NCBI GenBank assembly: GCA_030324005.1
Contig: JARDVH010000025.1
Span: 83,635,521 to 83,699,520, forward strand
From: Negaprion brevirostris
Lineage: Eukaryota
Direction: 5' to 3'
Length of the DNA: 64,000 nt
In this document: piece by piece, positions 23,452 to 57,600 of the stretch
How positions within the stretch are numbered: position 1 is the stretch's first letter
Layout of the letters: each line of letters starts with the position of its first letter
Translations under genes and position numbers: made by a program
Notes under the pieces: generated by a model
The model's database searches: none
Seen by the model: only the letters and a program-made list of their open reading frames with translations
Told to the model about the DNA's origin: nothing

Positions 23452-23630
23452 GGTTTTTCTGTATTAGACACTTTTAAACTAAATCAAAGGAACTAAGGGA
23501 CAAAGTAAAAGGGCCCCTGCTTTAAACTAGAACAAATCACAAATTAAACATAAAGCATCAAACTAAAATATGATTAAGTGGTTGATAAGGCACTTCAGTC
23601 CCTGCAGTGCCTACCTGGCACAGAAGAGGG
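23452..23630 (-). mobile_element. Putative Tx1-clade LINE 3' end (ORF2 C-terminus plus 3' UTR)
   Basis: Minus strand 23625 to 23563 translates FCAR*ALQGLKCLINHLIIF*, resembling remembered Tx1 ORF2 ends (F..RWAP.G..C). A T-rich UTR follows. Related segment at 24243-24350. Confidence 0.45.
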
Positions 23631-23764: not shown

Positions 23765-23989
23765 ATCACTTCTTGGCCTTTTTTTTGTTTTTATTCCAAT
23801 TCAATCAAATCAAGTCCAATTCAGAGTCTCAACAAGTTGAGACTCATCTTAGCCAAAAGGCCGGGTGCCCCCTTCGGTGCACTTATATTTCTCCAAGTCT
23901 GTACTAGGCCTGTCAATTATGTAGTTGTAGTTGTGAAGAACTTTTAGCCTTTTGGCTAAGATGAAGTGCAGTATCTTCATGCTGTTCTT
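23765..23989 (+). pseudogene. U2 snRNA 5' fragment split by an insertion
   Basis: 23765-23782 matches U2 nt 1-18 at 16/18 (both mismatches are CpG transitions). 23947-23976 matches U2 nt 12-41 at 28/30. Confidence 0.75.
23779..23863 (-). mobile_element. Internally deleted U2-headed SINE-like element
   Basis: Minus strand has CGGCCTTTTGGCTAAGAT (U2 nt 10-27, 18/18), then GA, then a 53-nt tail 52/53 identical to 24183-24235, then an A-rich tail. Confidence 0.7.
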
Positions 23990-24040
23990 GGTTGAAGTCA
24001 TTAGGTTACATTTTGGCTTCATTTGAAGCAATTTTTAGAA

Positions 24041-24242
24041 GTGGCATCTGGGCCTTTTGCTAAGATGCAAATTAGATCAAGCCTTGGGGGAGGAGCCAAG
24101 GCTACTCCAATCAGCTCGGATCACGTAAATCAAACCCAAGAGAGGAGGTGAGAGCCCTGTCTCGTCCGCTTGGATCGGTAATGTCTCAACTTGTTGAGAC
24201 TCTGAATTGGACTTGATTTGATTGAATTGGGATAAAAAAAAA
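24041..24242 (+). mobile_element. U2-headed SINE-like element (~200 nt, A-tailed)
   Basis: Head GTGGCATCTGGGCCTTTTGCTAAGAT...AGATCAAG resembles U2 nt 1-31; structured body; ends GGGATAAAAAAAAA. Confidence 0.7.
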
Positions 24243-25292
24243 CCAAATCAAACCACGTGAGGGACAAAAGAGGCTACCCCTTAAAGGGATAATGCTTTCA
24301 ACAAAACTAAATCATAAATAAAACTTAAAACATCAAACTAAAATTTGGTCAGGCAAGAGGGTCAATTGATATCCTGCTTACCAAAATGAGTGTACTACTT
24401 CATGAGCCTTAACTTTGAATCAACACAGTCCTGTTACTGTTGAAGCATATGTCAGCTAAGGCGAGAATTTGAATTTATACTGTCTGATTAAGAGTCAAAT
24501 GATGAGCTTGTGAAGTAGAGATTGTGTTGAAGTCTTAGTGTGGAATAAGTATGGCATCAAATATGCTATTAGCATGTTACAAGTGATCTCAGCCATTCTG
24601 TAACTTTCTTCCATTATTGACGATTTTGTGTAACTGCTGGGAAGTGGAACCAAACTTCATCCACTTAAAATTTGCATTCATAATGAGAATGTGCTGTCAA
24701 ACTTGGAAATGGAGATCAAAACGGTACCAAAGGAAGAAGATGCTGTCCTTGACCGTTCCCCAGCAACATTTGACAGCTTGGCATTGTCCTGACTGAACAA
24801 GTTATTTTCACAGCATCTTAGCAAGTTAACAACATTCACAAGATACAGAAAGCAAAAGTACTTTACAATGTTGGGATGAGGATCATTGGTTTAAATTTCC
24901 CTGTACAGAAGAACTAGATCCTGAAGAATTTAGACTGTTTCACAGATGTGGATTTGAACCCTAAGGTAAGCAAACTAAACTGTTTCATATGTCTTTTCTT
25001 AAAATTTGATGGAAGTTGAGCTTATGTAATCAGCTAGGAATTCTCTCCTAAGGCAACTTCTTGGGCTATTTTTGTTCACAAACCATTCTATAGTCACAGA
25101 GAACATGTGTTAGTCTATTTTAAAGTGTCACTGTGGTAATTTAAACCGATTCTTTTGCAAATATAATATTGCCGATTGCTTTTGAAGTTCTTTCCTCAGT
25201 TCACTATTATTAAACATAAATCTGGACTGAGTAATGGAGCAACAATGCCATCAGCTGAGTCGAACAAAGCCTCTCAAACATGGGCACAACAA

Positions 25293-52889: not shown

Positions 52890-54650
52890 GAATCACAGAA
52901 ATGGCCATTCAGCCCATTGTTTCTGTACTGGCCAAAAAAGAGAAAAAGGAAATTCGTTGATTAACTTAATCCCACTTTTCTGCACTTGGACTTCCAGGTT
53001 ATAACATTGTAGATGCAGATTCATAGAACATAGAACATTACAGCGCAGTACAGGCCCTTTGGCCCTTGATGTTGTGCTGACCAGTGGAACCAATCTAATG
53101 ACCCTCTAACCTAAACTATTCCAGTATTATCCATATGTATATCCAATGACCATTTGAATGCCCTTAAAGTTGGCAAGTCCACAACTGCTGCAGGCAGGGC
53201 ATTCCACGCCCTTACTACACTCTGAGTAAAGATTCAGGTACCTTTAAAATGTGTTGACCATTTCAGCCTCAACCGTCAATTTAGACAATGAATTCTGGAT
53301 GCCCATCACCCTCTGGATGTAAAAGCTTTTCCTCATTTCCCCCCAATCCTTATGTCAATCACCTTAGATCTATACTCTCTGATAATTATCTCCTCAGGTA
53401 GGGTAAACAAGTCTTTCCTGTCTACCCTGTCTCGGTCCCTCATAATTTTGTACATCTCAATTGTCCTCCTTTGTTCAGTGGAAAATGACCCAAGCTTCTT
53501 CAATCTTTCCTCACAGCTGCAATTTTCAAGCCCTGGCAACATTCTTCTAAATCTCTTCCACATTCTGTCTAGAACAATTATGTCCTTCTTGTAACGTGGT
53601 AACCAGGACTTCACAAAACATTCTAGCTGTGGCCAAATCAATATTTTATGCAGTTCCATTCTTACATCTCTACTTTTGTACTCAATAGCTTGCTCAATAA
53701 AGGAAAACAATGCACATGATTCTTGACAACCTTGTCCACCTGTCCTACCACCTTCAAGGGCCTGTGAATATGCACTCTGAGGGCTAATCACTTCCTCAGC
53801 CCCTCTCAATTTCTTCCTATTAATTAAGTATTCCTTTGCTTTGTTTGCCCTCCCTAAATGCATCACCTCACACTTTTCCAGACTGAATTCCATTTACTAT
53901 TTCTCTACCCACTCAAACCATTCCGGAGGTGACAGTTATCCTTTTAATGGTCAACTATCGTTGTCAATTTCTGTCACTTGCAAATTTCCTAATCATGTGA
54001 CTTAGATTTAAGTTTAAACCATTAATACATGCAAGAAACGGCAAGGGCCTCAACACTGAGCCCTATAGAATACCATTGGAAACCATTTCCCTCCATTTGC
54101 AAAAACATCCATCGACCATTACCTATTGTTTCCTGTCACTGAGCCAATTTTGGATCTAACCTGTCACCTTCCCTCTATCCCATCGGATCTGACTTTTCTG
54201 ACCAGAGTGCCGTGTGGCACTTTGTTAAATGTCTTACTGAAATCCATGCGGACCACATCCACTGAACTACTCTCATTAATCCTGCCACTTGTTAAAAAAA
54301 CTAGATTACATTCGTAAGACATGATCTTTCCCCAACAAAATTATGCAGACTTTGTCTGACTAATCTATGCCTTTCTAAGTGATAGTTTATCCTGTCTCTC
54401 TGAATTGTTTCCAATAATTTGCCCACCACTGGATTCAGACTGATCAGCCTATAACTTTCTGGCCGATCTCTTGTATCCTTTTTAAATAATGGTATAGCAT
54501 TCGCAGACTTACAATCCTTTGCAACATCTGGTGAGGTTTGGAAAATGATCCTCACTGCATCTATGCATCTCAATCCATCTAGCCTTAGTGATTTATCCAC
54601 CTTCAAGGATGCCAGTCCATCCTTAACTTCTGCTGTCACTATGCTTATGG
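52890..54650 (-). mobile_element. CR1 LINE ORF2 fragment with a nested CR1 3' end (53022-53230)
   Basis: ORF 53333..53893 (EKCEVMHLGR, RMLPGLE) and ORF 54301..54639 (PLFKK..R.RP.SYR.ISL..VVGKLLE, RSCLTN). Confidence 0.9.
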
Positions 54651-57600
54651 TACGTAATATTTCACACTAGCCAACATTTGAGTATGGGGCCTGGCATTGG
54701 GAAGGGGCTCCCATGAAAGACACTACTATATGCTATCTAAAAAATGAGGTAAGGCACAGAACACAAGGTATAGAACAGTGGTAGGCTTAAATTGTATCAA
54801 AAAGAGAATGGAGGGAGGGAAAAAAACAGTTTAGATCATTGAATAAATTAGATTAAACTGTAAAAACAAAATAAAATAAAACTGAACGTTGTCACCAATG
54901 TATTAACCAATGAGCTGGAGAAGTAGCCAGAGGTCTCTTGATAATTTTTGTCAATGTTTTATGATCTGGCAGGTGCTAAGTGTATGCAAACAAAATCACA
55001 AAAGGGAAACTTAGTAAGATATCACACTCTTTTCTTGTACCACGAGAAGGGTAAGTGTCCTGAAGTCAAAAGTCACAAATTCCAGTAACACTGCTGAATG
55101 TTTTAAACATTAAATTAAAACATTCATTAACAAAAGAAAACAAACACACAAGATTACACGTACACAGTTAAAATCAGTCTTACAGAACATTCCCCCCAAA
55201 GGATTACCAACATGGATAGACTCACAAATAAGTTCCCCTTTAGGCAATAATCCCTTTACAGATACTTAACCCATCAAAGTTACCACAAGATAAATCCACT
55301 GTCACAATTGGGAGTTATGTAACAGGGCTGCTCTTCTTCCAGTTTGCAGTGGAAATTCCATGAAACTTGAAAAGTTTGCTTTCTGGAAAATCAAAACACT
55401 TTTCTGGTTGGCTGGAAGCTCATTTTGCTTTGCACTGCGGAAATCAAGCTCCACCCCCCACTTAGTTATCCACTTAAGGGCCTCATTTAACTTCTAGGTG
55501 GGAAGGCTGTCTGAGACTTTCTGCCCAGAATTAATCAAGCAGAGTGTAATGGTACGTGTTCTATAAACTCCTGCCAAGGTGGTATTAAATACCACCCCAA
55601 CCTTCAAACTCATCAACAGGGGAGCACTAAATTCCACCCTCAATTACCAGTATAAAATTCTTGAAATCGATAAGCAAATTGATGCTTAACATTCTTCTGA
55701 AGACAGTTTAAAATTTATTTCAGTCGAGTCACCATGGCAATCATAGCAGGCAAGGGGTGGACCATTGAAAGGGCCTTTGATCTCGGGCGGGATTTTCCGC
55801 TTTCACAGAGAGCATGACCGGAAAATCCCACCCACTGTCTCTATCTACCATGATCATATTAAATGTGCATTAATAAAGTCACAAATAATTTGGATATTAA
55901 TTATAAGTGTAAACATTCTACTTCTACATTTATTTTTTAAATTATTCTCCTAATAGTTTTCACTTCCAGTCCACCTCGTTCAACTGAAGATGTTGACACT
56001 GGGGAGATGCATTTCTCCACACTGATTGTCTTCAGGTACAGTGATTAAGTGACCCTTTTTCAGTGCAGGCTTGGCTTGTGAGTATTGACATTCTATTCCA
56101 ATGCTGTTGGCATCATCGCAGCATTCCTGATTTTGTCTTCAGCCGATGTGCATACGTTCACACATGTTGTCTGGAAAACAACTGTTATTCTTTGACTGTA
56201 GCCCTTTCAGATGCACTAAGAAATCTTGAGATAATACATGTTGCATCTTTTAAATCATTATGTTTGGATGAGGCAATCACTGTCATATAGCAACATGGCT
56301 CAAATGGTCATTTTCTATTTGCCAGTAGATTAAATGCTGATATTTCAACAAGTAATTTTCCAAATAAAATTGATAGGTAAAATGACATTTAATTGATTAG
56401 GAAATGGCATTGTCAGCTATATTGACTATTTTAAATTTGAGTTGCATGCCACTCCTGCCCTTTCTTCTGATCCCTATCACCCAACCTGTGGCCCCCTTCC
56501 TACGCACTCTCACCTATGGCCCGGATTCCTCAGCAATCCTACGCCTCTTCCAGTACTTTACAAGTATCAACCACCATTCCTGGAGACCCTGCTGGCAATA
56601 AAGATTTCTGATTGACTAAGAGCTCTTGGCAGGTGGGATTTCCACCCCTTTGGAATCCTGAATCACTGGAAAGCTCAATCCTGGCTGTTTAAGTGCCTGA
56701 TGGGCACTTAATTCTATCAGGCTTACCCCAGTAAAGATGATGCATGACTCGCATCCGTTCTCTAAGTGGCAGGCAGGATCCTCAATATCAACTGTAAATT
56801 TGGACCTGAATTTCTGATGCAAGTACAAAGCTTTGACTTTTAGAATCTGAAATACAGCTCCACATGAGAAAGGAGAGAATTAGAATGTTGAAAATGAAAA
56901 ACAGTGTTTACTGATTATAGAGATAGATTTCGTCAAATAGTATGTGTTCATGGGTGTACTGAGAGTGAGAATTTCCTGGCACTATCAACAAAGAACTTTG
57001 CGCACTGAAAAATCCTTCCACCTCAACAACCTTTCATCAAATGGCTGACGATGTGCAAATCAAGCATCAGCATGTACTAAGGGTTATTTTTGCAGTGGAA
57101 TGTCTCTGTGAATTTAACTCTTCATCAGGTAATGGTGGACCAAAATTCTTTCTAGTTCAGCTATGGATTCAGCATGCTGAGCTGCTGATAGACCAGCCAA
57201 TCTCCAAACAGGAAGCTGTCAACTCAAATGTTCTTTCCCCCCTGCCATTTTAGTATTACGCCTACGTGAAGGAGATAGATCACCTAGGCTAGTGAGTGGG
57301 CTGCAAGTTTGAAAACTGGCCCATTTACCAACCCTTAGTGTCCCAGGATGTTAGCAGTTAAACAAGTGGGGTTTCGGGAATAGGGTCTGGTGGGATTTTT
57401 GTTGGTTCAGACTGATTCTATGACTCCATGAATAAGATTGAATACATTTAATACACACCAAACATTTCATAATGAGTGGTAGAATATGCTTAATCATATA
57501 TTAACAGAACAATCAACTTCAAATGGTAAAAACGAAAGAAATATTTATGCTTTGATTGGACACAGAAGGAGTGCATGGTTTTCAATAAGTGTGTGTAGTC

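Follow-up and report, generated by a model that had tools for sequence, protein, structure and literature searches.

A one-off three-part chimera, probably twin-primed at an ordinary T-run, splits the U2-derived head of a SINE-like element in a shark genome

Results

The window analyzed here, a stretch of 64,000 nucleotides from the genome of the shark Negaprion brevirostris, carries a SINE-like element of a dispersed family (family A) whose U2-derived head is interrupted after U2 nt 18 by an insert of 161 nt (23783-23943). This insert consists of three parts, namely an antisense family-A tail, an antisense U2 piece and, on the same strand as the host, the 3' end of a tRNA-Cys with its trailer. 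The insert is a one-off chimera, and we consider twin priming on two RNAs, begun at an ordinary T-run, the probable cause of the split head. The junction is a one-off retrotransposition accident, for which mammalian precedent exists; the wider SINEU-like family and the LINE described below are of greater interest than the junction itself.

The host is one copy of a U2-headed SINE family

We found that the two host pieces, 23765-23782 and 23944-24243, together form one full family-A copy of ~300 bp that is U2-headed and poly(A)-tailed. Members of the family share the order U2 head (nt ~1-41), middle, second U2 piece, 3' body and poly(A) tail, and internal T4/T5 runs are directly visible in them. 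Querying the genome with 24050-24250 gave 1,663 first-look candidates, with 88-100% identity in the 40 that were scored, while a 19-mer internal to family A had 968 exact matches genome-wide; we estimate that the family is dispersed in the shark genome at about a thousand or more copies. Amongst 41 near-full-length copies, mean non-CpG identity to the family majority was 93.3%, and a target duplication score of at least 9 was obtained for 8 of them, compared to 0 of 197 shuffled pairs. U2 nt 1 is reached by only 3 of these 41 copies, and 5' ends at U2 nt 8-9 are common (8/41). The host itself differs from the family majority at 27 of 297 positions, and a search for a target duplication around this copy found none. 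No open reading frame of at least 120 aa overlaps either the insert or the ~300-bp host.

The original prediction described U2 nt 1-18 running directly into a T-tract complementary to an A tail, followed by a degenerate repeat and a restart of U2 that continues to nt 41, and both observations were borne out. The T-tract begins at 23783, and the first 18 nt match the U2 gene of the same genome (locus L035) at 16 positions, both mismatches being CpG-type transitions. U2 restarts at nt 9 (23944), 161 nt later, and extends through nt 41, with 29 of 34 positions identical to L035 over nt 9-42. The probability of finding at least 12 matches to U2 by chance among the 14 bases preceding T4 is ~2e-6 for one position. 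The Rfam U2 match at 23937-24109 is weak, scoring 30.8 bits against a gathering score of 46, and therefore the locus does not hold a U2 gene. What had been taken for a U2 5' fragment is instead the head of the dispersed family.

Features of the interrupted element and its insert (positions are those of the window).
Feature	Position	Strand	Remark	Basis
Host 5' end, family-A head, U2 nt 1-18	23765..23782	+	T4 is the likely priming end	16/18 to L035
Antisense family-A 3' end with poly(A)	23783..23845	-		0/57 differences from family majority
Antisense piece of U2 nt 10-27	23846..23863	-		18/18 to U2 gene
Last 13 nt of tRNA-Cys(GCA)	23861..23873	+		83-84% to tRNA-Cys loci L032-L034
3' trailer of tRNA-Cys gene	23874..23943	+		alignment to tRNA-Cys loci, 83-84% together with the 13 nt
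Host remainder: U2 nt 9-41, middle, second U2 piece (~24044-24066), 3' body, A-tail	23944..24243	+		family structure
Right-hand duplication copy, U2 nt 9-18	23944..23953	+	possible extension back to 23940	9/10 to 23773-23782
Older dispersed repeat, directly right of host A-tail	24240..24347			40 scored matches, 73-89%

Three further observations concern the surroundings. The end of the same old dispersed repeat occurs twice, at 23472-23628 and 24240-24347, ~770 bp apart and on both sides of the cluster. The host head has three changes at 23961-23980 that few or none of the fetched copies share; jointly they form a perfect 6-bp inverted repeat, which looks like a quasi-palindrome template switch. 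Elsewhere in the window, a Pfam search with ten open reading frames returned no match above the cut-off; a weak reverse-transcriptase match at 54304-54666 on the minus strand (E 0.0095, below the cut-off) is probably a LINE remnant.

The insert joins pieces of different RNAs

The 161 nt had been read as a single inserted element, a view that the three-part composition replaces. The antisense tail, 63 nt long, ends at a hairpin with a 9-bp stem (z = -3.2; 2 of 200 shuffles were equally good), and two extra bases at this end lengthen the stem. This tail carries the majority tail variant of the family, whereas the host carries a minority variant (43 versus 3 matches), and thus it was not copied from the host; the same difference rules out that the host cDNA folded back and copied itself. 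The contrast in age between insert and host is weak: the inserted tail shows 0/57 differences compared to 27/297 for the host overall, yet a perfect (0-difference) tail is also present in 4 of 40 other family-A copies, and the host tail itself deviates at only 2 of 57 positions.

The adjoining antisense U2 piece likely derives from the internal U2 piece of the family or from a head; over its 18 nt it is also identical to the rare head variant of this host. The junction between this piece and the tail occurs a single time genome-wide. We also considered whether a short master element had given rise to the insert and rejected this, given that the inner junction is unique and that the spacer matches only three tRNA-Cys loci. 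The left end of the tRNA-Cys part lies just 3' of the T-loop, a region in which m1A58 blocks reverse transcriptase. At the other end, the trailer match stops at 23943, which in all three tRNA-Cys loci is 4 nt ahead of the first T4 of the trailer, oligo-T being the terminator of Pol III. Three nucleotides (23861-23863) are common to the antisense U2 piece and the tRNA-Cys end, an overlap short enough to arise by chance.

Target duplication and sequencing runs

A target site duplication of ~14 bp had been proposed for the insertion. Because the tRNA-Cys trailer matches the right-hand repeat copy over its initial 4 nt as well, the duplication measures either 10 bp with one mismatch or up to 15 bp with one mismatch and one gap; the longer form comes close to the proposed length. 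In the related run X1, a contig spans the trailer-head junction without 8 bases at 23941, which would limit the duplication there to at most 5 bp. As this 8-base difference lies within a near-tandem repeat, it may be either a gain or a loss.

The left junction is bridged in run X7 and approached within 15-26 letters in X1, X5, X18 and X19, and right-flank contigs cross the host tail in those four runs. None of the listed contigs bridges 23843-23874, and hence the central junction is given by the assembly alone. The search for an empty site, suggested along with the prediction, covered 6 of the 22 listed runs and found none in them. Run X8 yielded no long piece specific to the locus, which is uninformative on this point.

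Nesting follows T-runs rather than U2 sequence

We examined how often antisense family-A tails follow the T4 of a U2 head. A strict pattern of U2 head plus antisense tail had three matches, in the window, at L048 and at L049, relative to 2,968 intact U2-type sites. A looser pattern had 11 matches, nine with family tails and two without; four have a U2-head host, which adds L170, and five lack a U2 host. Antisense nesting of the family into its own U2-derived head, primed at T4, accordingly stands as originally proposed, with L048, L049 and L170 struck at the same site. As a control, a non-U2 T5 within family A was counted under equally strict patterns, yielding three matches in 968 intact sites, of which L121 and L122 are clear and L120 has an unclear host. 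Per site, the non-U2 T5 is thus used at least as much as the U2 T4 (two clear of three matches per 968 sites versus three per 2,968). An Rfam alignment had hinted at a U2 Sm site concealed in the control T5; a score as good was reached in 344 of 500 shuffles, and we discarded this reading as not significant. An inverted pair at L023 was left out of the analysis since it spans an assembly gap.

Unselected tails gave a consistent picture. Of 56 distinct tails, 54 had readable flanks, and 0/54 were flanked by U2 at a threshold of at least 7 matches in 10. The original prediction had named such a flank comparison as its test, and the flanks proved to be only T-rich. Moreover, the host resumes at nt 9, 15 or 21 or not at all, and this variation argues against a fixed second nick. 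Judged from these sequence comparisons, U2-specific targeting appears to be rejected, and a new U2-targeting element at this locus is not supported.

Nonetheless, nestings at the U2 site exceed the expectation of a flat T4 model, with three observed (two without the window) against 0.07-0.38 expected, an estimate made from rough inputs and with regional clustering uncontrolled. T-run priming alone therefore leaves an excess of U2-head nesting unexplained, and self-nesting may be enriched, yet not specific to U2 sequence. At L121 and L122, the 5' end of the inserted copy and the target edge of the duplication share 5 nt, which may favor the internal T5.

A twin-priming model and its alternatives

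The host is continuous over the insert, with U2 nt 1-18 followed by nt 9-41 and the remaining family-A sequence, and the two insert segments lie in opposite orientation with their RNA 3' ends outward and a 3-nt inner overlap. Twin priming in a host that was already in place accounts for the opposite orientations, the outward 3' ends, the overlap and the duplication, and it is the reading that we regard as probable. Under this model, a protein of Tx1/L1 type, the type that we infer for the mobilizing enzyme, would nick the top strand after the T4 of the U2 head, and the nicked end would prime on a second family-A RNA at its poly(A). Synthesis would stall after ~60 nt at the hairpin, gain two bases by fold-back and jump to the U2 piece. 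A bottom-strand nick ~10-15 nt upstream would in turn prime on a tRNA-Cys transcript that was still unprocessed, close to its 3' end, this second cDNA would run back to the tRNA T-loop, and the two cDNAs would join via the three shared bases. The U2 head would be struck for its T-run and not through recognition of U2 sequence. If so, the locus would record an unprocessed tRNA that was reverse-transcribed at a SINE insertion site. In the accessible portions of two mammalian studies, antisense tRNA/L1 and snRNA/L1 chimeras are attributed to twin priming, and retrocopies of pre-tRNAs are described (PMC13174262, PMC4476161).

We weighed this model against three others. The order of the pieces might reflect a single event with no earlier host, in which first-strand synthesis copied family A starting from the right and then changed template three times: to pre-tRNA-Cys, next to family A in antisense, and last, through A4:U4 pairing, onto a U2 or family-A RNA at its 5' end. 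Several features are compatible with such a history: the tRNA piece shares the host strand, which is expected of a 5' extension, the start of the left piece falls exactly on U2 nt 1, and the apparent right-hand duplication could be an ordinary 5' end, given the frequency of ends at nt 8-9. Furthermore, at L048 U2 4-18 is joined to an antisense tail and the rest of the host is missing, and recurrent 5' gain of U2 pieces is described for SINEU in the part of PMC4494074 available. The scheme nonetheless requires three jumps and an antisense template whose tail variant differs from that of the host, whereas L049 and L170 at the U2 site and L121 and L122 at the non-U2 site, where the duplication is 12 bp, are plain antisense nestings with the host resuming; we hold it to be unlikely. 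Somewhat less probable still is a cluster of related elements in which the left U2 piece (nt 1-18), the antisense tail and the SINE to the right are neighbors of independent origin. Family A, the second SINE family and the U2-headed LINE described below do often adjoin (L154, L160, L050, L079), but here the two U2 pieces complete one head, their 10-nt overlap falls within the size range of duplications in the family, and no genomic flank separates the pieces.

The least probable alternative, and in our judgment a very improbable one, is that family A or its LINE, in the manner of Keno and Utopia at U2, specifically recognizes U2 nt ~5-18 as its target. It would account for antisense tails placed directly after the U2 T4 at four loci and for the excess of strict matches over the flat expectation. 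Against it stand the absence of U2 from the flanks of all 54 unselected tails, the count of three strict matches against 1,214 matches to the tail pattern (about two thirds of them family A, in a sample of 30), the variable resumption, and a site and orientation unlike those of Keno and Utopia. Equal per-site use of T-runs, which also speaks against recognition, is largely indicated by the counts, although on small numbers.

A second U2-derived family and a U2-headed LINE

Family B is a second, more diverged U2-derived SINE family that keeps both 5' and 3' parts of U2 (L100, L101, L082, L049, L033:2057-2250). For the U2 3' half in family B, 0 of 500 shuffles were as good, and the 3' body of family A is related to family B. 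One family-B copy lies within the spacer of a tRNA-Cys array.

We also identified a LINE family (L126-L161, e.g., L151:500-2317 and L160:340-480) encoding two RNA-binding domains of ZCCHC3 type, zinc knuckles and a reverse transcriptase, which we tentatively label Tx1-like from its ORF1 type and 3' end. The named proteins nearest to it, at 71-72% identity, are those of three sharks. Amongst 20 loci fetched, 18 had a flank at the LINE 5' end, and in 16 of these a U2 piece lies upstream. The U2 heads vary in length and end at nt 34-58. At L160, the head stacks U1-, U3- and U2-like pieces, the U1 and U3 matches being below the gathering score, and at L145 it combines U3 and U2 pieces. This U2-headed LINE is possibly related to Keno.

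Family A and the U2-headed LINE often stand head to tail (L154, L160, L050, L144, L079), and such neighbors suggest shared machinery or A-tail priming. We looked for a tail common to both; it was absent in the one LINE 3' end that was read (L152), and L154 was unreadable, with a 3-kb gap preceding family A.

Comparison with known systems

SINEU elements are crocodilian SINEs with U1/U2 heads that are associated with Tx1-Mar LINEs (Kojima 2015, PMC4494074), and the accessible sections of that paper report none outside crocodilians. As far as those sections describe SINEU, family A resembles it: it is short, its head derives from U2, it ends in poly(A), U2 pieces recur in it, T-runs lie within it, its target duplications measure about 10 bp and it occurs in tandem copies. 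Like SINEU, it has been amplified as a family of common structure and not as independent chimeras, as indicated by the identity amongst the 41 copies and the 19-mer count. Family B retains U2 5' and 3' parts as SINEU-3 does, and the Tx1-like LINEs carry U2 (and U1) heads, as does Tx1-11_Crp (the same sections of PMC4494074). Unlike SINEU, the host genome is that of a shark and not a crocodilian, one LINE head includes a U3 piece in its stack, and no common target repeat was evident by eye in the flanks viewed. As far as searched, family A thus appears SINEU-like by the structural features tested, as distinct from a sequence comparison with crocodilian SINEU-1/2/3. A literature search, with Repbase and subscription journals outside its scope, found no shark SINEU, only crocodilian ones: the visible text of PMC5381603 mentions SINEU for crocodilians only, and term matches in the excerpts of PMC12748216 and PMC11240701 were to SINEUP references only.

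Keno (Tx1 clade) and Utopia (RLE) share with the insert the presence of U2 sequence at the junction of a non-LTR retroelement (excerpts of PMC4640811 and PMC4494074), an analogy that had been drawn for this locus. The analogy fails in site and orientation, as the 3' flank of both elements is U2 from nt 39 according to the available text of PMC4640811. They are also protein-coding, with reverse transcriptase and endonuclease, and site-specific, whereas the insert here is non-coding, antisense and placed after nt 18, and the family is dispersed.

The insert resembles twin-primed small-RNA/L1 chimeras, in which two opposite RNA-derived segments meet at one site with short junction homology; within the accessible parts of the mammalian reports, a tRNA partner usually lies antisense to the primary element (PMC4476161, PMC13174262). 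It differs from the chimeras described there in that a SINE takes the place of L1 as the primary RNA, its partner consists of the 3' end and trailer of a tRNA instead of a tRNA half, and the insertion went into a further copy of that SINE.

We tentatively suggest that sharks may have evolved a SINEU system of their own independently, in which U2-headed Tx1-like LINEs, some with U1-U3-U2 heads, would mobilize at least two U2-derived SINE families. The end of the family-A head at ~U2 nt 40, near the Keno/Utopia site, may then represent the co-transcribed upstream half of a target, and self-nesting at the T-runs of the family would lie well above the flat expectation, perhaps aided by pairing between the 5' end of the element and the target. 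An open question in the part of PMC4494074 available is how SINEs whose snRNA heads lack an internal promoter are transcribed and mobilized; if confirmed, the shark U2-headed SINEs and Tx1-like LINEs would offer a second vertebrate system for addressing it.

Other U2 sequences of this genome include full-length ones with divergent 3' halves (L036-L038), two of them on small contigs, which are either variants or foreign contigs. At L040-L042, U2 variant genes form a tandem array with a period of 492 bp.
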